64,000 nt of DNA from an uncultured Candidatus Saccharibacteria bacterium (GCA_964599285.1 CAZREI010000002.1:9955-73954), one strand, 5' to 3'. Shown: positions 9,427-64,000, counted from the first letter of the stretch. Translations and numbers: made by a program. Notes: generated by a model from the letters alone, not told the origin.

Positions 9427-9608
9427 GGTACTACGCTGAAGTAACGCTGATATCAACGCTGAATTTACGCTGATACTTTGTCCTCCCTCGCGCGCAATTT
9501 CTTGCGAAATTCCGCGCGACGATTGACAAATAGAGTTTATTATTATATACTATCCTTGTTGTTCTTTCAAGTCGCTCAATCCTCTTTTTCTCCTGAAAGG
9601 AGATCGTC

Positions 9609-9830
9609 GTGATCGAAAATGCACTTTATGTTTGGGATCTCTTCCTTGATAGCGAAAAACATGAAGCATCAAGGCGGAGTATCATTGAAAAGCTTGATAG
9701 TCTGTCTATAGTTGGTTTCCGTGTTACTAGTTTCCAACACTTTCCAGACGAGAAGATCATCACCTTTCATCTCCAAAGAGAAAAAAAAGAAACTTCACCA
9801 CCTGCTCCACCGGCAACCATTGCCGACTGA
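9609..9830 (+). CDS. small hypothetical protein (73 aa), opposite strand between rplD and rplC
   Basis: GTG/ATG after AAGGAG SD. TTGACA-17-TATACT promoter at about 9522-9551; terminator 9840-9879. Confidence 0.4.
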   Translation: MIENALYVWDLFLDSEKHEASRRSIIEKLDSLSIVGFRVTSFQHFPDEKIITFHLQREKKETSPPAPPATIAD

Positions 9831-11049: not shown

Positions 11050-11430
11050 CTATATCTTAATAGATATATCTACTCCCGATGGTAAATTCAAGTCTCTTAG
11101 CGCTTCAATGATCTGTTCGTTCGGGCTTAGAATATCAATGATTCTTTTGTGGATTCTCATTTCAAATTGCTCGCGGGCGTTCTTGTGAACAAAGGTTGAT
11201 CGGTTGACCGTATACTTTAAAATTTCCGTTGGCAGTGGCACCGGTCCCACCACTTCAACGCCATGCCGATTGGCAATGTCAATAATCTGGCGCACCGAAT
11301 TGTCTATGATTTTGTGGTCATAGGCTTTCAGCTTGATGCGCAGTTTAGGCAAAGAAGCCACCGTTTGAACTGGCGCTTCTTTGGTTTCAACTTTTTTCCT
11401 GGTAACAGTTTTTTTTGCGACTACCATTAT
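11050..11430 (-). CDS. rpsJ: 30S ribosomal protein S10 with N-terminal extension
   Basis: [29 protein letters not shown] uS10 core. Confidence 0.85.
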
Positions 11431-11494
11431 GTTGGATTTTCTGCGTGATTCCGCGTAAATTTCCGCGTTTTTCCGCGCCAAAAATCATCAAATA

Positions 11495-12688
11495 TTATTT
11501 GATGATTTTTGTGACCACTCCCGCTCCCACCGTCTTGCCTCCTTCGCGGATGGCAAACTTTGACTTTTCTTCCAAGGCAACCGGTACAATCAGTTTGACC
11601 GTCAAATTTACCGTATCTCCGGGCATAACCATTTCGGTTCCAGCTGGCAATACGACGTCTCCAGTAATATCGGAAGTTCTAATATACAGTTGTGGTTTGT
11701 ATCCGGTGAAAAATGGAGTGTGCCTTCCGCCTTCGTCTTTGCTTAATACATATACTTCGCCTTCAAATTCGGTGTGAGGAGTAATAGATCCTGGTTTTGC
11801 CAGCACCTGACCGCGTTCAATGTCTTCTTTTTTCAAACCGCGAAGCAAAATTCCCACATTGTCGCCAGCTTGTCCCTGGTCAAGGCTTTTTTGGAACATT
11901 TCAACCGAAACCACCACCGTTTTTTGCGTTGGCCGAATTCCTACCACTTCCACTTCATCGTTTTGTTTTATCACTCCCCTTTCAATTCTGCCGGTAGCAA
12001 CCGTTCCCCTGCCTTCAATAGAAAACACGTCTTCAATGGCCATGCAAAAAGGTTTATCCAGTTCGCGCACGGGTTCTGGAATGTAATTGTCGCAAGCATC
12101 AAGCAATTCTACAATTGGCTTGGCTGCTGGGTCATCCGCTGATGTGGCGCTTAAAGCTTTCAAAGCCGAGCCTCGGATAATCGGTGTTTGATCTCCTGGG
12201 TAGCCATATTTTTTCAATAATTCACGAACTTCTGATTCCACTAAATCCAAAATTTCCGGATCATCCACCATATCCACTTTATTCATAAACACTACAAGAC
12301 TTGGCAATCCAACCTGTCTTGCGAGCAAAATGTGTTCTTTGGTTTGAGGCATCGGTCCATCGGGTGCTGATACCAGCAAAATTCCACCGTCCATTTGGGC
12401 GGCTCCGGTAATCATGTTTTTAATATAGTCAGCGTGGCCCGGGCAATCAATTAACGCATAGTGCCTTTTGGGCGTTTCGCATTCCAAGTGAGTAATGGAA
12501 ATGGTCACCCCTCTTGCCTTTTCTTCAGGCGAGGCGTCAATTTTATCCACATCAGCTTCGGTTGCTTTAAAACCGCGCAATTTTGAAACTTTCATAATTG
12601 CGGCTGACAAAGTGGTTTTTCCATGGTCAACGTGACCGATGGTTCCGATGTTTACGTGAGGTTTTGTTCGCTCAAATTTATCTGCCAT
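11495..12688 (-). CDS. tuf: elongation factor Tu
   Basis: [22 protein letters not shown] motifs; 397 aa. Confidence 0.97.
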
Positions 12689-12861
12689 TTGTATTTAGGT
12701 TATAGCTTTTAGTTTATAGGTTATAGAATTTCTATAAGCTATAAGCTAGAACCTGTAAGCTAATTAGATTTTATTTATACTAATAATACTATTACACTAC
12801 ATTAAATAAGTCAATGATTTTAACATAAAAAGACGCGACAGGGCGCCTCTTATCAAAAACG

Positions 12862-13149
12862 CTACTGAATTTCCAGCGCTTCCTCAAGCTTTTTCACTCT
12901 CGGCCGAAGATCAGAAATACCTTCTAACTTCACTTCAACATTCTTAAGCCTTTCGTCTATTTTTTCAACCTTAACTTCAACGTTTTTCAATCTATCTTCT
13001 ACTTTTTCAAGCTGAACCTTTGTTGCTACGTTATCAAAACTATCTTTTACCATTTTAGCGGTAGGAAAAGTCTCTTCCATTACTTTGGTAGTAGGAAAAA
13101 TCTCTTTCATCGCCTCAATTATTTTTTTTACATCTTTCTCGTCTATCAT
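12862..13149 (-). CDS. hypothetical coiled-coil protein
   Basis: Repetitive VEDRLKNVEVKVEKIDERLKNVEVKLE heptads; no SD. Confidence 0.4.
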   Translation of the reverse strand: MIDEKDVKKIIEAMKEIFPTTKVMEETFPTAKMVKDSFDNVATKVQLEKVEDRLKNVEVKVEKIDERLKNVEVKLEGISDLRPRVKKLEEALEIQ

Positions 13150-13153
13150 ATTT

Positions 13154-13336
13154 TTATATTTCTTTTTTCTCTTCTTTAATAATGTTATGATTTTTTAGAA
13201 ATTCCACAAGTGGCACATTACAATCTTTGCAAAATTCGTAGTGATCGTAGGCAAACCGCACGGTAGTCCAACCACTTCTATACTTTTCTTCAATTTCTTT
13301 TTTACAAATATCACATTTTGTAACCATCATATGCAT
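13154..13336 (-). CDS. hypothetical zinc-ribbon protein
   Basis: CDIC...CKDC pairs. Confidence 0.35.
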   Translation of the reverse strand: MHMMVTKCDICKKEIEEKYRSGWTTVRFAYDHYEFCKDCNVPLVEFLKNHNIIKEEKKEI

Positions 13337-13450
13337 CCATTATAGTCGGCCAGAGAAGTCTGTCAAATTTGACGGAAAAACTTTTTGGTGCTAAATTATC
13401 AATAGCTGTTTGACATATCGACTTTTCCTCTTTTCACGGGAGAACAGTTC

Positions 13451-13810
13451 ATGACTCAGGAAAATCGTAGGGTTATTAGAGATACGGTTTTCGGCCTTCT
13501 GCGACAACGCCTAGAAAAGCGAGAAAAGATCATTGCGAAATCATGGGAATATTTGAAAGTGAAAGGTATTCCCAGAGAAGAGTTTGAAGAATGGTGGCGA
13601 GAAAGGTTTCCCTCTTGCCCAAAATGCGGATTCGGTTGCAGTTCAACTTTTATGCATTGTCCTGAATGCGGTACCCGATTGCCCCTTCCCAAAACCATTG
13701 AACAGCTCGACGACAGAGAAGAGGAAATGGTTGGATACAGCCACATTGCTCACCACCTCCAAAAAGCAGACGGTTTAAACTTCTGCGTAGATTGTGGCAA
13801 AAAACTTTGA
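13451..13810 (+). CDS. hypothetical zinc-ribbon protein (119 aa), opposite strand between tuf and fusA
   Basis: CPKCG...CPECG and CVDCG; GGGAGA SD; terminator 13822-13852. Confidence 0.45.
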   Translation: MTQENRRVIRDTVFGLLRQRLEKREKIIAKSWEYLKVKGIPREEFEEWWRERFPSCPKCGFGCSSTFMHCPECGTRLPLPKTIEQLDDREEEMVGYSHIAHHLQKADGLNFCVDCGKKL

Positions 13811-13821
13811 CCTTCGTACAT

Positions 13822-13852
13822 GCCCGGCTGGATTTCCGTCGGGCTTTTTTAT
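13822..13852 (+). terminator. intrinsic terminator
   Basis: gcccggctggatttccgtcgggc plus T-run. Confidence 0.55.
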
Positions 13853-13944
13853 TGTAAGACTCTGGATTGCCACGTCTCCGACTACGGTCGGGACTCGCAA
13901 TGACGACGTTATTCGTAATTCGATAAAATTCGTAATTCGTAGGA

Positions 13945-16020
13945 TTACTTTGTCTTCCCTTCGATTATTTGTTGCGCGACATTTGAAGGCACTTGTTCAT
14001 ATGAATTAAATTCCATGGTAAATGACGCTCGTCCTTCCGTTAGAGAGCGAAGGGCCGTCGCGTATCCAAACATTTCTGACAATGGCACCATGGCGTCCAG
14101 TACCTTCATGCCAACGCGCTCATGAGTTTGCTCAATTTTTCCACGCCTTGAATTTAAGTCAGATATAACCGGACCAAAAAATGCTTCGGGAGTGATGACT
14201 TCCGTTTTCATGATTGGCTCCAAAATGACTGGCTTGGCTTTTTTGGCGCCAGCTTGCACGGCCATACTTCCTGCAATTTTAAAAGCAAATTCTGAAGAGT
14301 CAACATCGTGGAAAGACCCGTCATACAGCGTAACTTGCACGTCCACCATGGGGTAACCGGCAATAATTCCCTTGTCTAGCGCTTCAATAATTCCCTTTTC
14401 GGTTGGCTTGATAAATTCTTTGGGAATGGCGCCTCCTTTAATTTCATCCACAAATTCAAAACCCTTGCCCCGTTCCAGCGGCTTTAATCTAATCAACACG
14501 TGGCCGTATTGGCCTTTGCCTCCGGACTGGCGCACATATTTTTCTTCAGCTTCTGATTCGCCGGTGATGGTTTCCTTGTAAGCCACCTGCGGCCGGCCAA
14601 AGTTTGCGTCCACGTTAAACTCGCGCCGCAGCCTATCCTGAATAATATCCAAATGCAATTCCCCCATGCCAGAAATAATGGTTTCGCCCGTTTCAATATC
14701 TTCTTTAATTCTAAAGGTTGGGTCTTCTTGTGTCAGTTTTCTGATAGAAGCAATTAACTTTTCCTGGTCGGCTTTGGTTTTTGGCTCCACGCGCATGCTG
14801 ATGACCGGTTCAGGGAAGGAAATTTTTTCCAAAACCACCGGCTTGTCTTTGTCGCACAATGTGTGGCCGGTTGAAGTATCTTTTAAACCAACTGTGGCGC
14901 CAATTTCGCCGGCATACAGCACATCTAATTCTTCGCGGCTGTTTGACTTCATGCGCAAAATTCGGGCGATTCTTTCCTGCTCGCCGGTTACGGAATTTAA
15001 TACATACGTGCCTTTATTTAAGGTGCCAGAATACACTCTAAAAAACGTCAGCTGGCCGACAAAAGGATCCGTGGCAACTTTAAATACCAGCGCGGCAAAG
15101 GGTTCTGAATCAGAAAATTTCCGTTCAATTTCTGCGCCGGTTTTAGGATCCGTGCCCTTGACCATGCCAATATCGGCTGGCGATGGCAGGTAATCTATGA
15201 CGGCGTCCAAAATAAATTGTGTGCCCTTATTTTTCAAAGCTGAACCGCAAAATACCGGCACCAGTTTGAAAGCCAAACAAGCTTTTCGCATCGCTACCAT
15301 TAATTCCTCGTTGGAAATTTCTTCGCCTCCCAGCAATTTGTTGGTTAAGGTATCGTCTTCGCCGGCAATTCGGTCCACCATTTTTTCGCGCCAAGCTTTG
15401 GCTTTTTCCATCATATCAGCGGGAATTTCGCGCTCTTCCACTTTTTCTCCTTTCTCACCTTCAAAATAAATAGCTTTCATTTTTAGCAAATCAATCACTG
15501 CCGATAAGTTTTCTTCTTCGCCGATGGGAATGGTCATAGCCACCGCGTTTTTGGTCAGTTTATCTAAAATACTTTGAAAAGATTTTTCAAAACTGCCACC
15601 CATTCTATCCAATTTATTGATAAAACAAACCCGAGGTGTGCCGTATTTATCAGCCTGGCGCCAGACGGTTTCCGATTGCGGTTCCACGCCAGCAACTCCG
15701 TCAAAAACCACCACCGCGCCGTCAAGTACGCGCAAAGATCGCTGCACTTCAGCCGTAAAATCAATGTGGCCAGGGGTGTCAATTAAGTTCATTTGGATTC
15801 CCTTCCAGTGCATGGTAATAGCGGCGGCGGTGATGGTAATTCCGCGCTCGCGTTCCTGTGGCATCCAATCCATCACGGTATCGCCCTCGTGCACTTCCCC
15901 AATTTTGTGCGAAACTCCGGTATAAAACAAAAGCCGCTCAGACACGGTAGTTTTACCAGCGTCTATGTGAGCGATAATTCCGAAGTTACGTAGTTTTTCT
16001 AATGGGTATTGACGAGACAT
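13945..16020 (-). CDS. fusA: elongation factor G
   Basis: [17 protein letters not shown], long EF-G body. Confidence 0.95.
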
Positions 16021-16047
16021 TGACAAATTATAGTTTATTGTTTATAT
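16019..16047 (+). promoter_or_regulatory. sigma70-like promoter TTGACA-17-TATATT for 16089 ORF
   Basis: Consensus spacing; overlaps fusA start. Confidence 0.35.
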
Positions 16048-16088
16048 TAAATATAGTTTCGAAACTATATTTTACTAGGAGGTGAGAC

Positions 16089-16307
16089 ATGTTTGAGTAT
16101 GCAGTTGTTCGTTTTGGTGCGTTCGAACCAGATGCAGCGGATGAGGTGGTGAAAACCGCGAACGCAAGGGCGCAAGATGGATGGCGCCTTGTATCTGTGT
16201 GCGCCGTCAAGCCCACCTCAACCTACTCATACGTCCTTCCGCAAGAGGGACAAGGTAGCACCGAAAAAGTACCCACAATCGCCGCTTTTTTCGAAAGGAA
16301 GAAGTAG
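16089..16307 (+). CDS. DUF4177-like small protein
   Basis: M.EY.VV....F......EELLNxxGxxGWxLVSV pattern; AGGAGG SD; higher GC than flanks. Confidence 0.5.
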   Translation: MFEYAVVRFGAFEPDAADEVVKTANARAQDGWRLVSVCAVKPTSTYSYVLPQEGQGSTEKVPTIAAFFERKK

Positions 16308-16323
16308 GAGGATTAACGAGCGA

Positions 16324-16356
16324 GGCGCCAACCCAAAAAGTTGGCGCATTTTTTTA
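16324..16356 (+). terminator. intrinsic terminator
   Basis: ggcgccaacccaaaaagttggcgc plus T7. Confidence 0.6.
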
Positions 16357-16614
16357 CCTGTAAATATCCTTCCGGTGACCAATTTCTACGAATACTGCTT
16401 CATCTTTACTTTCAAAACAATAAATAACTCTATACTCGCTTGTTAATCTTAAAGAATAAAATCCATTAAATTTTCCAGAAAGTTTTTTAACATGAAGGCG
16501 GGTGTCATGTTGGTCAGTTCTAAAAATATCTGTTTGCCGCAGGAGTAATTCTTTTATTTTCAGGGGCAAATTACTTGCATCTTTTAAAAAAGATTTTCTT
16601 AAAACAACTTTCAT
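16354..16614 (-). CDS. type II toxin, RelE/ParE family
   Basis: C-terminal YRVIYCFESKDEAVFVEIGHRKDIY matches RelE/ParE; 86 aa. Confidence 0.8.
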   Translation of the reverse strand: MKVVLRKSFLKDASNLPLKIKELLLRQTDIFRTDQHDTRLHVKKLSGKFNGFYSLRLTSEYRVIYCFESKDEAVFVEIGHRKDIYR

Positions 16615-38670: not shown

Positions 38671-40404
38671 TTACCCTATCGGCAGCTCAATGTAAAAAGT
38701 GGATCCCTGGTTTTCGCCCTTGGACTCTGCCCAAATCTTGCCGTTATGAGCTTTGATAATTTGCGTTGCCAGATACAAACCGATGCCGCTGCCAGAAGCA
38801 ACATCCTTGGCCTTTTGATCCCGCTCAAACACGCGGTCAAACAAAGTTTTTAGGCTTTCGGGTGTCATGCCAATACCCGTATCGGCAATGGTAATTAAAA
38901 TGGCGTTTTTGGAATTTTCGTTTTTTGGATTTTCATTGGAAATTGGTAATTGGGAATTGGAATTTATTTTCACCGTCACGCTTCCCTTCGGCGTGTACTT
39001 TATAGAATTATCAATGACATTGAAAATGGCTGCTTTTAATTTTTCTCGGTCGGCGGTGATGCTTACGTCCTTGGCCATTTTTTCCAGCTTCAACACAACC
39101 CCTTTTGATTCGGCCTTAAACGAAAGTTCGTTTACAATTTCATCCAACATTGGTGAAATCGCAATGCCAGGCTTTAATGTTACCGGATTTTTGCCCAACT
39201 GAAACTGCGTCACATCCAAAAAATTGTTGACTTTACGAATCATGTTTTGCGCCACGGCTTGCATTTTTTTGATGACCTCCAGCGTTTTTTTGTTCTGCTT
39301 GCCAAAGGTACCATTAAGCAACAGGTCGGAGTAGCCCATGATGGAAGTCAGCGGCGTTCGCAAATCGTGCTGGGTATTTTGCACAAACTGGTTTTTGATT
39401 TTATCCAACTTTTCCAGTTCTTCATTGGCCTTTTTTTCAACCAGGTAGGCCCGGTCAATATTTTCCTTGGCCCGCTTTTCCGTAACATAAGCGCGCCGAA
39501 CATCCTCAGCCATAGCGGCAATCTTCTCCCGCTGCTGCACCTCCCTCAAAACCCCGCGAATCAATAAAATGCCAAAGATAAGTACTGACAAAAAAACCGA
39601 AGACCGGTAGAAGATGACAACCAAAGAATCCGCCTGAGTGATTTCTAAAAAAGTAACCACCGAAAGTGCGAAGACCAAAGCCGCAGTTCCAATAACTCTG
39701 ATATTGAATAATTTATGCCTAATGATTGCGTAGGAAGTAAATAAAATAAATGGAAAAACAAATAAAGAACCGAATGGTGCAAATCTGGGATTACCAAACA
39801 CTGTTGGTAATATTAAATTAAATAAAATGTGCAAAACAAAAGTAATAGTTACACCTGTAAGCAATAATCTTAACTCACTTTTTTCCGTCGTATTAGTTGC
39901 TTTGATTAATTTTCTACACAATAAATAAATTGCATAGACTATTAAAAAGATAACCGTAATACCAAAAATAATAACACCAAAACCATTGCTAACTTTTTCT
40001 ATTCCTCCACTTTCTGAAAACTGGGTAACGCGCTCAAAAACAAATGGCGTCAAAGTTAGTAAGGTACTTAAAACTACCGCAGGAAGAACAAGTAAATAAT
40101 AAACTTTTGGAAATGAGATTTTTTCTTGAGGGAAAATATAAAAAAGCCTATAAAGAAAAAAGCAATACAAAATTGCAAAAAAAACATGGGCTCTTAAAAC
40201 CCAAATGGCTATATTTGATGGTAATGGTTGAAATATAAGATAATTTAAAATACCCCAAGGGATAGTTGAAATAACGAATGTGAAAAACGCACGATTTACC
40301 GCGCTCTTACTATTACTCAAAATAACAGTAAAACCCAAAACTCCATTTGCTGCTAATGCAATGCCAACAAATAATAGATCAAAATTTTGAAAATAATCAG
40401 TCAT
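38671..40404 (-). CDS. membrane sensor histidine kinase carrying a repeat-derived in-frame insert
   Basis: HisKA H-box QHDLRTPLTSI; HATPase G-boxes. Low-complexity SNENPKNENSKN encoded by an intergenic-type repeat at 38920-38962. Confidence 0.85.
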   Translation of the reverse strand: MTDYFQNFDLLFVGIALAANGVLGFTVILSNSKSAVNRAFFTFVISTIPWGILNYLIFQPLPSNIAIWVLRAHVFFAILYCFFLYRLFYIFPQEKISFPKVYYLLVLPAVVLSTLLTLTPFVFERVTQFSESGGIEKVSNGFGVIIFGITVIFLIVYAIYLLCRKLIKATNTTEKSELRLLLTGVTITFVLHILFNLILPTVFGNPRFAPFGSLFVFPFILFTSYAIIRHKLFNIRVIGTAALVFALSVVTFLEITQADSLVVIFYRSSVFLSVLIFGILLIRGVLREVQQREKIAAMAEDVRRAYVTEKRAKENIDRAYLVEKKANEELEKLDKIKNQFVQNTQHDLRTPLTSIMGYSDLLLNGTFGKQNKKTLEVIKKMQAVAQNMIRKVNNFLDVTQFQLGKNPVTLKPGIAISPMLDEIVNELSFKAESKGVVLKLEKMAKDVSITADREKLKAAIFNVIDNSIKYTPKGSVTVKINSNSQLPISNENPKNENSKNAILITIADTGIGMTPESLKTLFDRVFERDQKAKDVASGSGIGLYLATQIIKAHNGKIWAESKGENQGSTFYIELPIG

Positions 40405-40407
40405 AGA

Positions 40408-41484
40408 CTAAAGCCACTGAATTTCTGGTTTCTTTTTCAAGGATTGGGCAGTCGGCGGAGCGGCGTACCCTATCCTAAAACTAAAAGTTGGAATTCTTCC
40501 TGAAGTACTAAAAATTTTCACAATATTTTGATAAGCTTTTTTTATAAACACTACCTGATTTGGTGTAAATTCTTCTGGAGTTTCCTCCTGCATCCTCTGT
40601 CCTATATATAAAAGGCCTGCTGACACTGGTTGGAAACTTAGTCCTAAAGAAGTCACGGTAAGCCAAAATAATTGAAGAATTCTTCCAGTTTCAATAAAGT
40701 CTTTAGGTAAATCACTTTTAGCAACAATTAAACCTATCGCAGAGCAGTTACAATAGAGCTCTTCTCTCTTTTTTGCAGCTTTTACTGATATCTTAAATTT
40801 ATTTAGTATCTTTAAAATATTCCAATTACTAAACAGGTATTTAAATATAATTCGCATTAAAAATGGGAGCTCCTTAGTCCCGACATACAAACCTTCTCGT
40901 TTCTTTTTCTCTTCTTCTACGGTCCAGCTTACTTTTGCAAAAAAAGCTTTATGAATATCAAAGTTTTCAAAAATTAATCTATCCGCCATACTAAACGAAC
41001 CTGAAAGATTGCTTATATCTTCAACATTCTGTTTTAATAAAATCTCTAATCCTGAATTTTTTATTGATTCACAAAATGCTTTTATTGACTTTTCGTCCTC
41101 CTGTTTGAGGGGGATCTTTTTGTAAGGTTTTCTATTTGTAGCACGCTTCAAAATAAAAGGAAAAAGATAATTATAAGGATATTTGATATCACTTTTTTCA
41201 AAACTTATTTCTGCAACTAAATCAACTTCATTTTCTTTTGGAAACAAAGTTAAGTTCCCTCTATACCCTTTTTCTGATGCAGTAATTAAAATATTCTCAA
41301 TTAAGGCTCCGTGAGCAATAAACGATCCTCTTTGTTGATAATTAAATAAGAATTTATCCTTATTAGGAAGATTCCATAGAAAAATTTTATTATCGCTGAC
41401 AACAAATCTCCATGGCTGGGAATTATTTCCAGATGGAGCGTTTACGGCAATATTCAAAATTTCATTAATTATTCCTTTCATCAA
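40408..41484 (-). CDS. tandem nitroreductase-family protein (SagB-like or Acg-like)
   Basis: N-terminal VNAPSGNNSQPWRFVV nitroreductase signature; second nitroreductase-like half. Confidence 0.65.
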   Translation of the reverse strand: MMKGIINEILNIAVNAPSGNNSQPWRFVVSDNKIFLWNLPNKDKFLFNYQQRGSFIAHGALIENILITASEKGYRGNLTLFPKENEVDLVAEISFEKSDIKYPYNYLFPFILKRATNRKPYKKIPLKQEDEKSIKAFCESIKNSGLEILLKQNVEDISNLSGSFSMADRLIFENFDIHKAFFAKVSWTVEEEKKKREGLYVGTKELPFLMRIIFKYLFSNWNILKILNKFKISVKAAKKREELYCNCSAIGLIVAKSDLPKDFIETGRILQLFWLTVTSLGLSFQPVSAGLLYIGQRMQEETPEEFTPNQVVFIKKAYQNIVKIFSTSGRIPTFSFRIGYAAPPTAQSLKKKPEIQWL

Positions 41485-42564
41485 CTATCGTGAAATAAAA
41501 TCATCGAATGTCACCCGACTCCTTCCGCTTTTCACAGGCTCTCCAAGAGCAATCTTTCTGGCAATAAAACACGCAATACCAGAAGCTATGGTTACCGTGC
41601 TCATCAGCTGAGGCCTTCCCACTAAAGTTTTGCCGATCTCTTTTACCGAATCCATCACTTTTGGTGGAATATTCTGGGGCCCTACAATCTGCACTACATA
41701 TTTATTGACTTCTGCTTTAGGAACTTTGCCTTGCAACAAATCATCTAAGATTTTTTCCTCAACCATTCCATTAAATATTTTGGTATCTAGGTCATTGTCA
41801 TAGCGCTCCACATCAATGAGTACAGAGTCTCCAATACTGGTAAGCATGACCACGGGAATTTTTTGTTTTTTAGCTTCTTTCCTAAGTAAAATTTTCAATT
41901 CCAGATCATCAATAATTTCAAATACTAAATTTGTTTTTTGCTTGCCACCTAAAAAATCACCCATAGTTTCTTTGGTAAGACCTTTTTCAAACGGTATTAC
42001 ATTTACATAGGGATCTAACTCATATAACTGCTTGCTGATAATATCTATTTTTGGAGATCCCACGTCAGAAAGCTTTCCCCTCACCCTATTTAAATTGGTT
42101 GTTTCCAGAGTATCAAAATCAGCAATTTTTATATGTTTTGGAAACCCATTATATAAAAGTGTTGTGGCAATATTTCCTCCCACGGAAAGACCGGCAATGG
42201 CAATGGTAAAATTCCGTAACTTTTGTTGCTCTTCCGCAGTAATAATATTTCTATTGCGATTTGTTCGCAATGCGTCATTTTCTTGTTCTGAAAGTGTATG
42301 TAAAAGGACATTGCTCCAGGGATAATAGATCCAATCGCCAAGTAAATCTTGATCTTCTTGAGTTTTTATTTTTTTGAATACTAAGAATTCTTTATTAAAT
42401 TCTTCTTTCCCTGCAATGTGCGCATTTCTTATCTCAAAAAACTCTTTTAGTTGTTGTAAATAAACATCAACTACTTTGGGTTTATATTTATCTTCAAGAT
42501 TAGTAATTTCTTTTTCAGTGTATGCGCCCTCTTTTAAAATAGTGGGGTTTTTTAAATTATCCAT
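41485..42564 (-). CDS. E1-like ThiF/MoeB-family adenylyltransferase
   Basis: IAIAGLSVGGNIAT...IKIADFDTLETTNLNR. Confidence 0.75.
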   Translation of the reverse strand: MDNLKNPTILKEGAYTEKEITNLEDKYKPKVVDVYLQQLKEFFEIRNAHIAGKEEFNKEFLVFKKIKTQEDQDLLGDWIYYPWSNVLLHTLSEQENDALRTNRNRNIITAEEQQKLRNFTIAIAGLSVGGNIATTLLYNGFPKHIKIADFDTLETTNLNRVRGKLSDVGSPKIDIISKQLYELDPYVNVIPFEKGLTKETMGDFLGGKQKTNLVFEIIDDLELKILLRKEAKKQKIPVVMLTSIGDSVLIDVERYDNDLDTKIFNGMVEEKILDDLLQGKVPKAEVNKYVVQIVGPQNIPPKVMDSVKEIGKTLVGRPQLMSTVTIASGIACFIARKIALGEPVKSGRSRVTFDDFISR

Positions 42565-42593
42565 TCTATTATGTCGAGTTATATTTTAAAACT

Positions 42594-43367
42594 TTATTTT
42601 TTACTAACTTTTCTAGCTAATATTTTTGCAGATATATTAAATATGGGACTTCCATCTAATTTTTTGCCAAATGCCTTTCTCTTAACTTCATTGTATTCTA
42701 AAATTTCCCAACCCATATACATCTCTTTCAATTCGCCCTCATCTGGATAAAAATTATCTGTTTTGGGATCCTCCCTAAAAAAATCACCATTTTTCGTAAA
42801 AACCGTTATCGCATTTAATCCTTTAAGATTAGTGTGCTCCTGAATTTCCCGTATTAGTTTTATTGCTTCCTCATAAGACAAATGATGCAGCATAAAAGTA
42901 GAGACTAACACATCAAAATTACTATCAAGATTTAAATGGCGGCTATCTACAATTTCTGTTTTTATACCTAAATCTTTTTCCTGAGATACTTTTTTTATTT
43001 TTTCTATTCCAACTTTGGAAATATCTTCTGCCGTAACTTCAAATCCATTTTCAGCCAAAAATATAGAATTTCTCCCTTCACCAGCTCCTAATTCTAAAAC
43101 GGAACCTGAATTGCGATATTTTAGTATATCTTCAACAATTTTTTCTGGTTTTCCTTGGCCAAAAGTAACCCCATTTTCAGAATACATTTTGTCATAATGT
43201 TCTGCTATCTTATCTGCTGCTCCATCTTCACTTTCATTATTTTTTAACTGCTCTGCCATAAATTTACTACTAGGAATATTTTGATTTCGTTGCTGTATTT
43301 TACCATAAATCGGTTCAATCAGGCAACTGAAAGCTGTACATTTGTATATTTTCTTTACCTTGTTCAT
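42594..43367 (-). CDS. class I SAM-dependent methyltransferase (TehB-like)
   Basis: VLELGAGEGRNSIFLAENGFEVTAEDIS. Confidence 0.7.
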   Translation of the reverse strand: MNKVKKIYKCTAFSCLIEPIYGKIQQRNQNIPSSKFMAEQLKNNESEDGAADKIAEHYDKMYSENGVTFGQGKPEKIVEDILKYRNSGSVLELGAGEGRNSIFLAENGFEVTAEDISKVGIEKIKKVSQEKDLGIKTEIVDSRHLNLDSNFDVLVSTFMLHHLSYEEAIKLIREIQEHTNLKGLNAITVFTKNGDFFREDPKTDNFYPDEGELKEMYMGWEILEYNEVKRKAFGKKLDGSPIFNISAKILARKVSKK

Positions 43368-43482
43368 TGAGAAATAGATTCTGTCTCATTACCCAACACC
43401 ATTGACAATGGAGGGCATATGATATAATGTAAAAATAGTTTTTGGTACTTTGAAAATCCGAACTTCAATTTGGAGGATTGTT

Positions 43483-58556: not shown

Positions 58557-58670
58557 TCGTTGAGGTAGGAGTCGAACCTAGGATGGGGTCGGGAAGGAGA
58601 AGTCCTTCCCGTGTAGGAAGCCTTCAAAACCGAGGGTTTTGAAAAAGGATCGAAGTGACGCTGGTTCAAG
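58557..58670 (+). ncRNA. conserved structured RNA motif, copy 2
   Basis: Same blocks as 10953-11046 (reverse complement); preceded by T-loop-like ggagtcgaacc. Confidence 0.4.
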
Positions 58671-58680
58671 TAAAACGGAG

Positions 58681-58695
58681 TCCTACCACCGGAGC
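58681..58695 (+). repeat. 15-bp direct repeat (tRNA 3' end), right copy
   Basis: tcctaccaccggagc. Confidence 0.7.
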
Positions 58696-59060
58696 CATCG
58701 TATACGAATAGAGGCGAGAGCCTCTGTTTTGTTCGTAAAATCGCCTGTTTTTGCCAGTTCTAACCTTAAATACTCTGCTTGTAGGGCAGGATAGCCTTCG
58801 CCGATAGGTTGTAGCCACTCTTTTGGCTCAATAGTTAGATTTTTGTTCTTAATTATGGGCTTTTCTCCCAAGCTCATTAAGATTTCTTTCTTCAATTCTA
58901 ACCCTCTTTCTAAAAACTTGATTCTGGCGTAGGCGGCAAAGTGAAAAGTTTTTTCATTTATCTCAAACCAATGCTCGACTCGGGCTTCGGTTTCTTTTAC
59001 CAGATTTTTTAGCTTGTTTATTTTTGCCGCTAGTAAACCTATATTAAAAGTAAAATAAAG
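58683..59060 (-). pseudogene. C-terminal gene remnant without start codon
   Basis: About 120-codon frame opening directly after a stop; first Met only 70 codons from end. Confidence 0.3.
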
Positions 59061-59107
59061 CCCCCAATCAGTTTCCGTAGAAACCGACTAGGGGCATGTT
59101 GAAAGAA

Positions 59108-59518
59108 CTACCTGATGCTTGAGTTGCTCACGCTACTCAAACTGCTCTCCTCACGAACGTTGTTGATAGCACCGTTGCTATGAACATCGTGAGGCGTGTC
59201 GTTGACTGATCGAAACGGTGTCAGTTTGATGACCACGCCGCTTACGATTGCGGCGATGGCCACGATCACGAACACCGAGACGAAAAGGTCAATGACAACC
59301 CACTGCGAAACAACCACGGGCTGGTAAATCACGACGAGCGTGATCGCCACCCAGTGGCTGGTGCAGTAAGAGCATGACACAAGCTCACCGAGCCAGGTGT
59401 TTTTCTTGGCACTCCATTCCCTTGCGGAAGCGAAGAGCCGAGATTTGGAGGTGGTCACCGAAATCGCCGCTGTCGCCAGAGCGAGAACGATAACCTGATA
59501 CAAGCCGTTCAGATCCAT
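59108..59518 (-). CDS. DUF1360-like membrane protein
   Basis: SCSYCTSHWVA; AAAGGAGG SD; high GC. Confidence 0.5.
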   Translation of the reverse strand: MDLNGLYQVIVLALATAAISVTTSKSRLFASAREWSAKKNTWLGELVSCSYCTSHWVAITLVVIYQPVVVSQWVVIDLFVSVFVIVAIAAIVSGVVIKLTPFRSVNDTPHDVHSNGAINNVREESSLSSVSNSSIR

Positions 59519-59533
59519 TGCGCTACCTCCTTT

Positions 59534-59737
59534 CTAGCAGGTACATCCGCCCTGGGACTTGGACTGTTCGCGACGCATTTGTTCGTTGATGCTGTCGGCC
59601 AGCTTCAGGGCTTTGTCCACCCCGGCCAACACATCGTCAACCTCCGGAACCTGGTCGGAAATGTCAGTCGTCTCAAGAGACGAACTGCCACCTGGACCCG
59701 GCCCTTTGGTTTTCTTGCGGAACCGATCTTGGAGCAT
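59534..59737 (-). CDS. Pup-like small protein ending ...QGGCTC
   Basis: Gly-rich N-terminus; EVDDVLAGVD...KSQGG resembles Pup DEIDDVLEEN...QKGGQ; AAGGAGA SD; directly after ARC stop. Confidence 0.5.
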   Translation of the reverse strand: MLQDRFRKKTKGPGPGGSSSLETTDISDQVPEVDDVLAGVDKALKLADSINEQMRREQSKSQGGCTC

Positions 59738-59749
59738 GGATGTTTCTCC

Positions 59750-61487
59750 TTACGCCTTGGCCTGGCGAAGCTTCTGAATGCCCACGACTTCCTCGCGGAA
59801 ATCATGGACGAAATCAGAGAGTTCGTCGGTGTGGTTGAGGTCACGGTTTTGTTGTTCCACCAGATCCACTGCCACCACCAGATCGTCCTTGCGCATCCCT
59901 TCCGGCTTTTTCTTGGAAAGGTCGCGTTGCAGAGCAATCGAAGTGGCTTGGTCGATGATACTCACGATCATCCCACCGTTCACGATGTGACCGAGGGTGA
60001 AATCGCAGACACCATCTTTCTTCTTGACTTGGTAGAGCACCCGACGAGACGAGAACACCTCGTCACTGCCGAGCTTTGCCAGCTCCTCGCGCGTGTAACC
60101 GTTGTTAAGCGGCACTCGCTTGAGGTTGAGCTGGAAAATGTCCACCGCGCCTTGCGGAGTCGGACGCCCAATCTTGATCTTGCGATCAATGCGCCCGTCA
60201 CGAACCACAGCCGGGTCGAGGATGTCGGAGCGGTTCGTGGCCAGAATGACCAGAGCGCCCGAATCTTCGAGACCGTCCATTTCCGTCAGGAACATGGGAA
60301 CGATCGTGCGTTCCACATCCGAGCTGATGCCCGAACCGCGCTTGGACAAGATCGCGTCGGCTTCGTCGATGAACACCACCGCCGGATAGCCATGCGTTTC
60401 CTTGTGCTTGCGCGCCCGCTGGAAGATTTGACGAACCGTTGCTTCGGCCATACCCACGAAACGATCGAGAATCTCGGGACCCTTGATGTAGATGAATCCC
60501 GCAGACTTCGAGCCGCCGTTGTAGATCTTGGCCAGAGCTGTCGCCGTCGCCTTTCCCAGCATGGTCTTGCCGCATCCCGGAGGGCCATAGAGGAGAATTC
60601 CCTTTACTGGCTTCTTGCCGTAGAACCGGAAAATATCCGGGTTCCTGTGTGGAAGCTCCACGGCTTCGATCATCTGTTTCTTGGCTTCCGCCAAACCACC
60701 GACATCGTTCCAAGTGACGTTCGTTTCAGCCGAAAAGCTGAAGCGTTCGTCGTCTTTCCCGAGGTTGCGGATGATGACGCTGGCCGTTCCGTCAAGCACG
60801 ACGCGGTCGCCCTTTTCGAGCGCCTTGCCGAGCTTGCCGTTGAAAACGACCCGAACCGAAGACTGGTAGTCCACTTCCGAGAACATTTCGTCGATCACGC
60901 GTCGCAGGTAGCCGATGTCACCGCCCAGTTGCGTTGCCGCAACGTCGACGATTTGCATCGTCTCCATAACGATCGTGACCGTGTCGCCAGGGTTGACCTG
61001 TTTGTCCTTCGGCAGAAGGACTTCGAGGAACTTCCCTTCGACGGCGATGAGGGCAGTGTTGCCATAACTAGCAGATGCCTTCTTAGTGTACCATCGTTCG
61101 ACATCTGCACAAAAATCGAGAAACACCTTTCCGTCGTGATCAGTGAAAATCTTGGAGCCCTGAAAACCCGCCACCACATGCTTCTTGGCCTTCATGACAT
61201 GGGAGGTAAGACCCACATCGGGTTTAATCTCAAGCTCATCACCCACAGCGTAACCCCGCAACGTCCTGACGATATTATCCACTTTTTCAGTGCTGCCGTT
61301 CACCATAACAATGGACGAAGGGATTTTTACCTCCCTCTTCACTTCCACCGCCACCACCGTCGCATACGCGAAGGGGGGGGGTAGTGAGCTGTTCGAGCAT
61401 CTCCTTCTGTTCGAGGAGCTTGGCTTTCGCCTGCTCGAGAGCGTCACGGAGCTTCTGGACCTGTTCTTGGACTTCACGTTCGTTCAT
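59750..61487 (-). CDS. proteasome-associated AAA ATPase (ARC/Mpa-like), frameshifted in a C9 run
   Basis: GILLYGPPGCGKT...FIDEADA...ILATNR...RxGRID; N-terminal coiled coil MNEREVQEQVQKLRDALEQAK encoded in the other frame upstream of G9/C9 at 61373-61381. Confidence 0.85.
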
Positions 61488-61774
61488 GACTGACCTCCTG
61501 ACCTGACGTTCGCGGTTTGATCTTCAACGGGATTTTGCAGGCATACGTCAACTGCTCGCAAAACTTTCGCCCCCGCTGGATCGTCAATCGTTCCGATGGC
61601 AAAGTGAACATTCAGTCCCCTTGCCAACTCCAGTCCTCCCCGGACCGAAGCTACGATTAGTTTTTGTCCGTCATGGGAACTGGTCGGATCCTTCACGCGC
61701 ACCTTCCAGACTGTTCGTCCTTTCGATGGCGTGTCGAACCCGACGACGAACCCATTGGTTCTTTTCGGGTTCAT
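61484..61774 (-). CDS. hypothetical protein (96 aa)
   Basis: ATGA overlap with ARC start; no family recognised. Confidence 0.4.
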   Translation of the reverse strand: MNPKRTNGFVVGFDTPSKGRTVWKVRVKDPTSSHDGQKLIVASVRGGLELARGLNVHFAIGTIDDPAGAKVLRAVDVCLQNPVEDQTANVRSGGQS

Positions 61775-61894
61775 GACTGGTTCCTTTCTGAACTAGTGAC
61801 CGATTTACCAAAAGACCGTCAGACCGTTTGACACCTCCTTTTAGTTTTCAAAGACCATTCCTAATGATCTCCAAGGCACATACCTTGAGATACC

Positions 61895-61925
61895 CCATCT
61901 TATCACATTGACAGTTTTATGTCAA
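61895..61925 (-). promoter_or_regulatory. promoter TTGACA-17-TAAGAT with palindromic operator ttgacaNNNNNNNtgtcaa
   Basis: On the reverse complement upstream of 61774; palindrome cattgacagttttatgtcaatag. Confidence 0.4.
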
Positions 61926-61930
61926 TAGTT

Positions 61931-61966
61931 TGTAGTAAAATAAAATCCCCTAGCGCTTTGTTTGCA
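61931..61966 (-). terminator. intrinsic terminator after 62003-62437 gene
   Basis: cccctag...ctagggg stem plus T-run on minus strand. Confidence 0.5.
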
Positions 61967-62002
61967 CTAGGGGATACTGTTGCCGACGGCGGTGCCGATG
62001 GC

Positions 62003-62437
62003 CTACGAAAAGATGTGCTCGACCAGTTCGGAGAGCGCCTTCTTGGCCTTGACCCACGGGTCGATGAGGACGACCTGCCAGTCCTTGCGGAGACCGACGT
62101 CGTCGCTGCCGACTTTGGGGAACTCGAGGCGGACGCAGGTCCAGAATGCCTTGTGAATGAGGTCTTCCTCGAGATGAACGGTCGCGTGCTCGCGGATGAT
62201 CTCCTTCTTTTTCTCCTCGGTGATCTTGTCGCCGAGTTCGGGAATCTCCTTCTGTAGCCGGGTGTGCAAAGCCTTCGTTTTCTCCTCGGCGCCCACCATC
62301 ACGACGTAGAGCTTCTTGAGATCGTCGGAAAGAATGCCCACGACTTCTTCGCCTTCCTCTACTCCGTAATCCGGAGACTTCATTCCCTTGAGAGAGACCT
62401 CGGATACCATTCCCATGACCTTCTTGAGAAACAACAT
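62003..62437 (-). CDS. hypothetical protein (144 aa), high GC
   Basis: GGAGG SD; consensus TTGACA-17-TATAAT promoter upstream on minus strand (about 62515-62545). Confidence 0.5.
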   Translation of the reverse strand: MLFLKKVMGMVSEVSLKGMKSPDYGVEEGEEVVGILSDDLKKLYVVMVGAEEKTKALHTRLQKEIPELGDKITEEKKKEIIREHATVHLEEDLIHKAFWTCVRLEFPKVGSDDVGLRKDWQVVLIDPWVKAKKALSELVEHIFS

Positions 62438-62603
62438 GGCAAACCTCCAATGTGTTACTCGAAAACCCTACACCGTGCAGGATTTCAGGGGTAACGAATT
62501 GACGAAATGTTCTGAAAATCATTATATTACAATAGGGTTCTATTGTCAATGGTTTTGGTTTTCTTTGATTAAATTTTAGATTTCCTTGGCTGGTCTGGTA
62601 GGT

Positions 62604-62633
62604 TGACACAGATTTTTATTTTGCTATAATTCC
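62604..62633 (+). promoter_or_regulatory. promoter TTGACA-16-TATAAT facing an ORF-less 400-nt region
   Basis: ttgacacagatttttattttgctataat. Confidence 0.4.
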
Positions 62634-63180
62634 ACTATAAAGCTCTTTGTAATTAACTCCGCTCCGCCTGCAGATGTAACAGCAAATTAGCCTCGGTACC
62701 TGCAGTTCTATGCAAAGATTCTAATATGAGAAATGTAAAAATGCTTATGACCTCCTTAGAATTCAATCTTCTAAAAGACAGTTGTTATTTTCGGAATCAT
62801 TAAATTAGAGGAACGAATGAAGTGCTAAATAGGCGATTTCAAGGATTATTAGAGATGAGTGGAGTTAATTACAGAGAGTTTTTTTAAGTTTTAAACTGGC
62901 GATAAACTTATTGGCCCTACATTAGGAAACTGCTGCAAATACCAAATTTTGATATCATTCCAGTGAGTTCTAATATTGTTTTCTTGCCAGAGCAAATGAA
63001 AATCTCCTTTACGGAGGTTTTTATTTTGCTTTAATGTTATTATTTGTAGAAATAAATTTGACATATTTATATATAAATATTATATATAATACATACAATT
63101 ACATAATATTGCAGGACAAAACTTGACAACAGTACATGATAGAATATATGATTGATTCAAATACATAAAAGCATATCATT

Positions 63181-63921
63181 ATGGAAATCATACCACTATT
63201 AAAAAAGTTCGGGCTTAGTGAAAAAGAAATCAAGGTATATTTGGCTTTGTTGGAATACGGCCCCGCTTCCGTAAGAAAATCAGCACAAATAAGCGGCGTT
63301 AATCGAGGGACCGCCTACGATATTTTAAAATCTTTAAAAACAATGGGGCTTATCAGTTATTACCACAAGGGTGCAAAACAAATGTTTGCTGCTGAAGATC
63401 CTAGGAAATTTTTAGACGCTATTAATGAAAAAGAACAAAACCTCATTACCGTAAGACAAGATATGCAAAACGCCATACCGCTACTTCAATCCTTGTATAG
63501 CAAGGCAGGCAGCAAGCCGACGGTGAAATTTTATGAAGGCATTAAAGCAATGAAAACTATTTTGCAAGATGTGCTTGAGGTTACTGAACATTCGAAAGAA
63601 AAAACGTACTATATCTTTTCTTCTTCCACGATTCGCCCTTACCTGCACCAGGCGTGGCCGCTTTTTACAACAGAAAGAGTTAAAAGAGGTATTTACGTTA
63701 AGTCGATTGGGCTGGGCCACACTGGCACCAAAGCTCCCCTGGCAGAGAGAAAAGGAATTACCGAAAAGCAGGGCCCTCCTACGTACTTTTTAATTTATCC
63801 GGGCAAGGTAGCCATGATTTCAGTTAATGAACACAAAGAATTGATGGGATTAATCGTACAAGATCAGGCAATGTTTGAATCGCAATTACAGATTTTCAAT
63901 TACATTTGGCAGACCCTGTAA
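63181..63921 (+). CDS. TrmB-family transcriptional regulator
   Basis: N-terminal wHTH FGLSEKEIKVYLALLEYGPASVRKSAQISGVNRGTAYDILKSL. Confidence 0.7.
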   Translation: MEIIPLLKKFGLSEKEIKVYLALLEYGPASVRKSAQISGVNRGTAYDILKSLKTMGLISYYHKGAKQMFAAEDPRKFLDAINEKEQNLITVRQDMQNAIPLLQSLYSKAGSKPTVKFYEGIKAMKTILQDVLEVTEHSKEKTYYIFSSSTIRPYLHQAWPLFTTERVKRGIYVKSIGLGHTGTKAPLAERKGITEKQGPPTYFLIYPGKVAMISVNEHKELMGLIVQDQAMFESQLQIFNYIWQTL

Positions 63922-64000
63922 AACCGTGAGTTACGAAATAGTTTGAAGGGGCTGTCACATCGCTCTTTTACAATTCCATAAAACAAAGAAAGGACCATGG

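Follow-up and report, generated by a model that had tools for sequence, protein, structure and literature searches.

Near one end of a 64,000-nucleotide stretch of DNA from an uncultured Candidatus Saccharibacteria bacterium (GCA_964599285.1 CAZREI010000002.1:9955-73954; the whole stretch is referred to below as the window) lies an island of high-GC genes, in which an AAA+ ATPase of the Mpa/ARC type, a 67-residue protein with similarity to part of Pup and a membrane protein of the DUF1360 family are encoded side by side. Pupylation and Mpa/ARC are regarded as largely actinobacterial and as tied to PafA and Dop and, usually, to a 20S proteasome (PMC8223512). The locus raises the question of what an Mpa-type ATPase and a Pup-like protein could do together away from those partners. 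The favoured answer, which we judge to have an even chance of being right, is that the genes form the four-gene core of a horizontally acquired accessory cassette of the Candidate Phyla Radiation (CPR), encoding an unfoldase that would work free of ligase and proteasome by means of docking and a cysteine tether.

Homologous loci (numbered with the prefix L) were gathered through protein look-up, GTDB genomes and JGI metagenomes. The genes for the ATPase, the small protein and the DUF1360 protein occur in that order in 17 distinct loci, the small protein, of 56-77 residues, ending in CxC in 16 of them and in HW..CC in one. p96, a 96-residue protein encoded first in the window's operon, is encoded upstream in at least 15 of the 17, L006 and L020 being without it. 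Every locus with this clade of ATPase, down to 47% ATPase identity, has a small open reading frame (ORF) ending in a cysteine pair and then a DUF1360 gene directly downstream, and the stop and start codons of the cassette genes often overlap or are closely spaced. The named homologues are from metagenome-assembled genomes (MAGs) of Kerfeldbacteria, Staskawiczbacteria, Parcubacteria and Taylorbacteria, all of them CPR, which fits the suggestion, in an earlier note made on this DNA from the sequence alone, of a minimal Mpa-Pup-like pair in a CPR-like context. Public annotation of the cassette proteins is limited to 'AAA family ATPase', 'proteasome-associated ATPase' or 'hypothetical protein', and no earlier description of the cassette was found in the PMC and bioRxiv literature. 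The features of the island in the window are as follows.

62521-62549, minus strand: promoter of the p144 gene, TTGACA-17-TATAAT, matching the consensus at 12/12 positions
62003-62437, minus strand: p144, 144 residues, its own transcription unit (ORF with a GGAGG Shine-Dalgarno (SD) sequence)
61945-61975, minus strand: intrinsic terminator 3' of p144, a 12-bp stem followed by a T run
61897-61925, minus strand: operon promoter, TTGACA-17-TAAGAT with TG, a 10/12 match
61908-61925, minus strand: palindrome TTGACATAAAACTGTCAA, overlapping the operon promoter
61775-61890, minus strand: conserved 5' leader, aligned with L003, L005, L007, L022, L023 and L028
61484-61774, minus strand: p96, 96 residues, OB-fold/cold-shock-domain-like, its stop overlapping the ATPase start (ATGA)
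59750-61487, minus strand: Mpa/ARC-type AAA+ ATPase, 578 residues if corrected, its frame broken in the assembly
61373-61381, minus strand: run of nine C that shifts the ATPase frame, read from the sequence
59534-59737, minus strand: 67-residue Pup-related protein ending in QGGCTC (ORF and family alignment)
59108-59518, minus strand: DUF1360 membrane protein, 136 residues (Pfam PF07098)
59060-59095, minus strand: intrinsic terminator closing the operon, a 16-bp stem followed by a T run

All five genes lie on the minus strand with an SD sequence of the GGAGG type ahead of each start codon, as the earlier note had described, and p144 is, as it had also proposed, a separate unit with a promoter and a terminator of its own; both promoters of the island are of the sigma-70 type.

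The base composition of the island sets it apart from its surroundings. Positions 59100-62450 have a GC content of 0.545, against 0.414±0.025 (maximum 0.448) in 17 non-overlapping segments of the same size from the rest of the window (z = 5.2). In 300-nt steps the GC content rises from 0.38-0.43 to 0.53-0.60 near 59100 and comes back down near 62400-62550, which bears out the abrupt rise and fall first noticed at about 59100 and 62450. GC content at third codon positions is 0.54-0.79 in the island genes against 0.39-0.47 in other genes of the window (EF-Tu, EF-G, a Cu-ATPase and others). So abrupt a change could also mean that foreign high-GC DNA was joined into a low-GC contig, as an assembly chimera or a contaminant. 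In Logan each public sequencing run is assembled separately, and exact-sequence look-up of the island proteins there gave two contigs. A contig of 3272 bp from run SRR8931234 (L001) is identical to window 58590-61861 and crosses the 59100 junction, reaching 510 bp into the low-GC flank; another of 3097 bp from run SRR8931233 (L019) corresponds to window 61757-64000 and beyond with 0 mismatches, and spans the 62450 junction into a TrmB-type gene. The two contigs break in the promoter/leader region of the island (L001 ends at 61861 and L019 starts at 61757), which would also suit a chimera, but for each junction there is an exactly matching contig that runs through it, and the two contigs come from separate assemblies of different runs. 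In addition, a high-GC cassette in low-GC surroundings is seen in independent MAGs and metagenomes, and the promoters and terminators at the island's edges are intact and AT-rich like the host. The chimeric contig that the earlier note had offered as an alternative is, on this evidence, barely credible.

The GC content of the cassette in other genomes points to its history. In L003, L005, L007, L014, L015 and L021 the homologous cassette lies 5-15 GC points above its flanks, whereas in the high-GC hosts L002 (a Kerfeldbacteria MAG, ~61%) and L020 cassette and flanks have the same GC content. Because the cassette exceeds low-GC flanks yet matches those of high-GC hosts, the simplest reading is that a high-GC cassette has been transferred horizontally again and again, with high-GC relatives as the source. 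No flanking direct repeats, att sites, integrase or tRNA genes were found at the borders of the island in the window. By Pfam annotation of 30 ORFs, the rest of the window encodes ribosomal proteins, ATP synthase subunits, tRNA-guanine transglycosylase, superoxide dismutase, a histidine kinase and similar proteins; with such housekeeping-type ORFs around it, the island therefore sits in the core chromosome. That the parts are as identified here and that the cassette is of horizontal origin is, taken together, highly probable.

The best NCBIfam model for the ATPase is TIGR03689, pup_AAA (321.2 bits over residues 161-556, with CDC48 at 202 and PAN at 198), and the score is below the equivalog cut-off of that model (504.75 bits). 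The structure of the ATPase was modelled with AlphaFold (AF2) from 50 sequences (predicted local distance difference test (pLDDT) 87), and a Foldseek comparison of the model with the PDB returned Mycobacterium tuberculosis Mpa chains as all of the top 30 matches, over 455-489 columns with 28-32% identity and E values from 1e-34 to 1e-27; proteasomal Rpt subunits come next at 1e-25. The two results agree with the earlier identification of the protein as ARC/Mpa-like. The architecture is also that of Mpa/ARC, with an N-terminal coiled coil, tandem OB domains, one AAA module and a C-terminal domain, together with an inserted, variable beta domain that is KOW-like in some members. The ATPase matches PF00004 with an E value of 1.3e-34 and its motifs are intact (Walker A GPPGCGKT, Walker B VVFIDE, pore loop RFVG, ATNR and RDGRID), sensor and arginine fingers included. 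Mpa docks on the 20S core through a GQYL/HbYX motif (PMC8223512). None of the 50 family members has such a tail or a penultimate aromatic residue; their C-termini are of the form ...RQ(A/S/G)xA, and that of the window's ATPase is ...RQAKA.

The 575-residue ORF first listed for the ATPase opens with out-of-frame residues. The true start is the ATG at 61487, from which the N-terminus reads MNEREVQEQVQKLRDALEQAKAKLLEQKEMLEQLTTPP and encodes the coiled coil; read from the sequence, hydrophobic residues occupy heptad positions 6, 10, 13, 17, 20, 24, 31 and 34, followed by PP and then by the beta-rich domains. With eight C in place of nine at 61373-61381 the protein would be an intact 578-residue ATPase reading ...LTTPPFAYATVV..., and homologues of 563-588 residues span 100% of this corrected sequence with an identity of up to 76%. 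At the same site the homologues read ...PPFAYATVV, with codons CCG CCG and without a long C run, which is unique to this genome. The nine C belong to the consensus of the reads, because L001 has the same nine. The frameshift could be fixed, the tract could be phase-variable, or +1 slippage could take place on CCC-C; because the run is a +1 insertion in a poly-C tract, the ATPase copy in this genome may be off, phase-variable or expressed through slippage alone.

The small protein encoded next to the ATPase has nine close homologues, and a profile search of 1.84 billion representatives gave 69 matches, about 62 of them 56-87 residues long; the long proteins P0273 and P0274, also matched by the profile, are unrelated repeat proteins and were set aside. 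Members of the family have four parts, namely a basic N-terminus (MLQDRFRKKTKRP), a Gly-rich stretch, a helix and a variable basic linker that ends in CxC, and the protein is probably intrinsically disordered. The family helix is VPEVDDVLAEVDKAL.KA, in which hydrophobic residues recur with the 3-4 spacing of a heptad; in the window's copy the helix is VPEVDDVLAGVDKALKLA and the hydrophobic residues at 30, 33, 37, 40, 44, 47, 50 and 54 follow the heptad pattern. C65 and C67 are the sole invariant columns among 57 aligned sequences, and CxC falls inside the last eight residues in 65 of 71 members, a small subclass ending instead in HW..CCGVRRWVED. The QGG that precedes CTC in the window's copy, to which the earlier note had drawn attention, is not conserved; the terminal CxC is. 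No member (0/71) has a GGQ/GGE C-terminus. The combination of a conserved 'leader' with a Cys-containing C-terminus also brought to mind a precursor of a ribosomally synthesised and post-translationally modified peptide, which was rejected as a modifying enzyme is never adjacent.

Pup binds the coiled coil of Mpa as a helix, and the pore engages the N-terminus of Pup (Striebel et al. 2010, cited in PMC8223512). When the 57-member family was compared by hhalign with M. tuberculosis Pup, the sequence of which was checked against the PDB, the segment VPEVDDVLAEID.AL.K was placed on Pup residues 33-49 (TEETDDLLDEIDDVLEE) with a probability of 68.6% and an E value of 4.6e-5. A Pup segment that includes residues 33-49 was reportedly found by Wang and colleagues in 2010 to fold into a helix on the Mpa coiled coil. 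Pfam Pup (PF05639) is the commonest sub-threshold match of the family (9/57 members, best E 0.0019; the next family matches 3/57), and in Smith-Waterman comparisons with Pup 66% of the 71 members beat composition-preserving shuffles at p≤0.01. The signal emerged only once the family had been widened to 57 sequences. The window's protein on its own matches nothing in Pfam, NCBIfam, PADLOC or PHROGs, and a PDB search with a ten-sequence profile retrieved only spurious TAL-effector matches to the Gly-rich segment and not Pup.

The evidence for kinship with Pup is thus modest but consistent, and the small protein can be suggested to work like the Mpa-binding half of Pup. It could instead be unrelated to Pup: a Cys-dependent peptide that binds metal or has a redox role, or else a protein that the ATPase acts on or is regulated by. 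In that case the resemblance of its acidic helix to Pup would be due to convergence, and no recognition of the pupylation type would be involved. The want of an above-threshold match in Pfam or the PDB, the missing Pup C-terminus in 71/71 members and a first hhalign run that aligned the Gly-rich part only would all sit well with this. Against it, Pup is the most frequent Pfam match by 9/57 to 3/57, the aligned segment is exactly the Mpa-binding helix of Pup, among known relatives of the Pup-reading ATPase the one encoded by the partner gene is the closest, and the scores are above those of composition-matched shuffles. An origin apart from Pup is accordingly judged distinctly unlikely. Of the description of the 67-residue protein as Pup-like, the helix therefore stands and the C-terminus does not: because the protein ends in CxC and never in GGQ/GGE, it lacks the defining feature of Pup, which serves in deamidation and isopeptide ligation, and by its sequence falls outside the Pup family as defined by a conjugatable C-terminus.

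The last gene of the operon encodes a protein of 136 residues with three predicted transmembrane (TM) segments, and its earlier assignment to DUF1360 is confirmed by a PF07098 match of 32.1 bits (gathering cut-off 21, E 1.2e-7). The motif C.YC.SHW is at least 90% conserved in the 17 cassette copies and lies at the start of TM2, directly after a K/R-rich loop. Because of that loop, the positive-inside rule would place CxYCxSHW at the cytoplasmic face. Nothing on the function of DUF1360 was found in the searchable literature.

In keeping with the earlier note, which had missed Dop, PafA and 20S genes in the window, no Pup_ligase or proteasome family was detected among the 30 other window ORFs scanned (182-577 residues, every unassigned ORF of at least 300 residues included). 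Seven homologous loci have neighbours with Pfam annotation (L002, L003, L005, L006, L007, L020 and L021), and over 7-10 kb around their cassettes there is likewise no Pfam family of Pup_ligase, depupylase or proteasome. A canonical Pup-proteasome system with its Dop, PafA and 20S genes elsewhere in the genome would be compatible with these results, as the window takes in 64 kb of a 101-kb contig. Pup is ligated through a C-terminal Glu, and since no member of the small-protein family ends in GGQ/GGE, the protein is not ligatable in that way (PMC8223512); the tail needed for docking on the 20S core is found in 0/50 of the ATPases, and the window's ATPase scores below the TIGR03689 equivalog cut-off (321 against 504.75 bits). 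Together with the empty neighbourhoods, this makes a canonical system highly improbable.

A mechanism of docking plus cysteine tether is put forward tentatively, as the somewhat less probable part of the favoured reading. The small protein would not be conjugated by a ligase. Its amphipathic helix would dock on the N-terminal coiled coil of the ATPase, as Pup does on Mpa, with the basic N-terminus facing the ATPase pore, while its CxC would be joined to the CxxC(H) of the DUF1360 protein, either via a shared metal ion (a 'zinc clasp') or by a disulfide. The hexameric unfoldase would thereby be recruited to the membrane protein, or pull on it, and would act as a stand-alone remodelling or extraction machine with no 20S proteasome. 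There are precedents for a CxC and a CxxC sharing one Zn in the CD4-Lck zinc clasp and in Hsp33. As in CD4/CD8-Lck and Hsp33, one partner would contribute CxC and the other CxxC, in a geometry that would suit a tetrahedral Zn releasable by oxidation; the proteins are unrelated to those of the cassette and the likeness is pure analogy.

The cassette shares features with several known systems and differs from each. As in the actinobacterial Pup-Mpa/ARC system, a small, Gly-rich protein of about 60 residues is encoded beside an AAA ATPase. The small protein is probably disordered, and its acidic heptad helix can be aligned with the Mpa-binding helix of Pup; the ATPase matches the Mpa fold over 455-489 columns and starts, as Mpa/ARC does, with a coiled coil, after which come PP and the OB domains. 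Unlike Pup, the small protein ends in CxC and not in GGQ/GGE; unlike Mpa/ARC, the ATPase is without GQYL, scores below the pup_AAA cut-off and has an extra variable beta domain. No PafA or Dop is encoded near the cassette in the annotated loci or among the scanned window ORFs, the DUF1360 membrane partner is obligatory, and the hosts are CPR bacteria and not Actinobacteria.

In some Actinobacteria, including Corynebacterium glutamicum, the 20S genes are absent from the Pup-proteasome locus and ferritin iron mobilisation depends on pupylation (PMC8223512); like these, the cassette retains an Mpa/ARC-type ATPase at a locus without 20S genes. The proteasome-less Actinobacteria ligate Pup-GGE by means of PafA/Dop, whereas the cassette has no evident ligase and its tag-like protein could not be ligated in that way. 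In such Actinobacteria ARC acts as an unfoldase and not as the partner of a protease. Küberl and colleagues are said to have shown in 2016 that ARC carries out the ferritin step in C. glutamicum. UBact of Nitrospirae and other Gram-negative phyla, reportedly described by Lehmann and colleagues in 2017, is said to have Dop/PafA homologues, often a 20S proteasome, and a conjugatable Q/E end. The cassette resembles UBact in having a Pup-type small protein and an Mpa homologue outside the Actinobacteria, and differs in that no Dop/PafA or 20S gene is evident at the loci scanned and the small protein has no conjugatable Q/E end. Finally, FtsH and other membrane-anchored AAA machines of the classical clade are likewise classical AAA hexamers, and the cassette ATPase is proposed to act, as they do, at the cytoplasmic face of the membrane; unlike FtsH it has neither a TM segment nor a protease domain, and its anchoring would be indirect, through two small proteins.

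Several points weigh against the favoured reading. The similarity of the small protein to Pup is sub-threshold and the window's copy has no match in Pfam or the PDB; hhalign with only ten sequences gave a probability of 12%, on another segment (the Gly-rich part), and the resemblance could be due to convergence of acidic amphipathic helices. The protein-protein contacts and the metal binding proposed for the cassette are deduced from sequence, and the topology of the DUF1360 protein from the positive-inside rule alone. The ATPase is frameshifted in this window, and the scans for dop, pafA and prcAB covered the 30 window ORFs and the 7-10 kb neighbourhoods. p96 may be only a regulator that stands outside the machine, because it also heads operons without an Mpa-like ATPase. 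A bolder version of the favoured reading, in which the CxC family represents a conjugation-independent and possibly ancestral type of Pup recognition, with an encoded adaptor whose reversible cysteine or metal link takes the place of the isopeptide bond, is considered improbable.

p96 has 79 homologues. Its structure model is a five-strand OB/cold-shock domain (CSD) barrel (pLDDT 83), and no sequence match was found in Pfam (CSD included), NCBIfam or the PDB, nor were RNP1/RNP2 motifs. The 'GGQS' at its C-terminus was considered as a Pup-like GGQ and rejected, being an artefact of the overlapping ATPase SD sequence (AGGAGG) and ATGA that is lost in distant members. p96 genes that head an operon come after a sigma-70-type promoter and a conserved leader of about 115-130 nt. 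In the class to which the window belongs the leader consists, in order, of a 5' hairpin, GGTCTTTGAAAAC, AAAAGGAGGTG, repeats of the GTCAAACGGTC type and the SD sequence. Of 34 loci, 16 have the motif TC[ATC]TT[GA]AAA somewhere in the 300 nt that precede p96, where chance would give 0.9. The leader, with its single-stranded repeats GGTCWTTGAAA and GTCAAACGGTC, is kept upstream of p96 whatever genes come after (the copy in L003 is at 9575-9707); a different class of leader is found in L021, L033, L034 and L037, and no Rfam family matches. The operon promoter has a counterpart in six related leaders, and this half of the earlier proposal of an operon under a promoter with a palindromic operator holds. 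The other half is not supported: the palindrome TTGACATAAAACTGTCAA is present only in the window and, imperfectly, in L003, and with its absence from five of seven related leaders it is not conserved. The two terminators of the island have a 26-nt sequence in common, at 59049-59074 and 61934-61959 (AGTAAAATAAAGCCCCCAATCAGTTT and AGTAAAATAAAATCCCCTAGCGCTTT; 77% identity).

Because the conserved leader precedes p96 where p96 starts an operon, the most likely role of p96 is to bind nucleic acid and so regulate the operon that it heads. In the proposed mechanism it would act on its own leader, which may be an autoregulatory binding site; the conserved leader motif is suggestive in this respect. 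p96 is a promiscuous front-end module of CPR accessory operons. It heads operons with a distinct AAA ATPase (type-B) of 487-519 residues in L011 (1863-4115), L012, L013, L016 and L035, operons encoding JAB/MPN proteins in L017 (6986-11477) and L037 (5001-7056), and one encoding a protein with a five-fold helix-turn-helix in L034 (1764-3667). The operons with the distinct ATPase are often preceded by a p144 homologue. Diverged p144 homologues immediately precede p96 in eight other loci, most of which have the distinct ATPase, and those listed are L002 (two copies), L010, L011, L013, L027, L029 and L039; no relative of known function was found for p144 in Pfam, NCBIfam, PADLOC or the PDB. At L042 (4995-8597) a p96-like domain is in frame, with no stop, with a secretin-like protein of about 1100 residues, which itself begins with a lipoprotein-type signal peptide; this is either a fusion or two genes without an intervening stop.

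The genomic context of the cassette varies by locus and often includes integrases, tyrosine or serine recombinases, tRNA genes, restriction-modification, AbiEii and diversity-generating retroelement (DGR) genes. Such neighbours bring in the main rival, that the cassette is a conflict or defence module in which the DUF1360 protein is a membrane-damaging effector that the ATPase and the small protein hold in check or set off, p96 senses foreign nucleic acid, and the cassette spreads as genomic-island cargo. In L003, L007 and L020 the cassette stands beside DGR, Fic, RadC, restriction-modification, AbiEii and SMC-like genes and serine or tyrosine recombinases; tRNA genes are nearby, the GC pattern indicates recurrent horizontal transfer of the cassette, and p96 also heads the JAB-containing and other variable operons near defence-like genes. 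On the other side, PADLOC gives the ATPase only generic AAA matches (IetA, TRIP13) and the other four proteins nothing at E≤0.001 (DUF1360 has three chance-level matches, E 0.025-0.063), and no known anti-phage defence system is matched. Relatives that might point to an arms-race exchange are missing from IMG/VR and from GenBank phages, and the neighbours are housekeeping or unrelated in the window, L002, L005 and L021. On balance a defence role is unlikely, while being the strongest of the competing explanations. An origin in phages was also considered and rejected, as p96 has no relatives in IMG/VR and tblastn found no match of DUF1360 in GenBank phages; the only matches on the phage side are a weak one to PHROG 781 and, in BFVD, generic OB/SSB folds.

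Further observations concern the surroundings of the cassette. About 1.2 kb downstream of it in L006, positions 11068-16603 encode a second AAA ATPase, two unknown proteins, an 86-residue ubiquitin-like candidate (...NAEGGIQTS), a Prok-JAB protein and a ThiF/E1 protein, and the whole looks like a bacterial ubiquitin-like conjugation operon. L014 (1447-1568) and L040 (2810-2928) have a LOOT RNA (Rfam RF03000, 78-92 bits) that precedes the cassette by about 2 kb, and in L022 and L034 tRNA genes are no more than about 0.4 kb away from it. In the window an AT-rich spacer (GC 0.27-0.35) separates the island from the TrmB-type gene. It contains, on the plus strand at 62603-62630, a perfect TTGACA-16-TATAAT with no ORF of 40 residues or more behind it; this 28-nt sequence has a second copy, 82% identical, 405 nt further on at 63008-63035, and a 26-nt inverted repeat pair 192 nt apart occupies 62639-62664 and 62857-62882. 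These spacer features could be a small RNA or what is left of a mobile element. The composition of the window is also anomalous at 40000-43400, this time towards low GC (0.31-0.34 against 0.42 overall); the genes there encode a nitroreductase-family protein (40408-41484), a ThiF-family protein (41485-42564) and a TehB-like methyltransferase (42594-43367).

The cassette may bear on the origin of Pup, in that it pairs an Mpa-type unfoldase with a dedicated, non-ligatable Pup-like partner. The invariant cysteine pair of that partner is matched by a conserved CxxCxxH in an obligatory membrane protein, and the arrangement has passed horizontally between CPR bacteria, whose genomes are tiny. Recognition of the Pup/Mpa type would here go with neither conjugation nor a proteasome and would be linked to a membrane protein. 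If the proposed docking and cysteine or metal tether are right, the cassette would offer a simple, testable case of an Mpa-like motor that recognises a substrate or an anchor independently of proteasome and ligase, a first functional handle on DUF1360 and a plausible evolutionary precursor of Pup. Should the ancestral version also be true, proteins would be 'tagged' for AAA unfoldases by a new kind of chemistry, at the membrane of proteasome-less CPR bacteria, and there would be a concrete scenario in which pupylation arose from an ARC adaptor. The cassette may in this way reveal how Pup-like recognition operates without pupylation.

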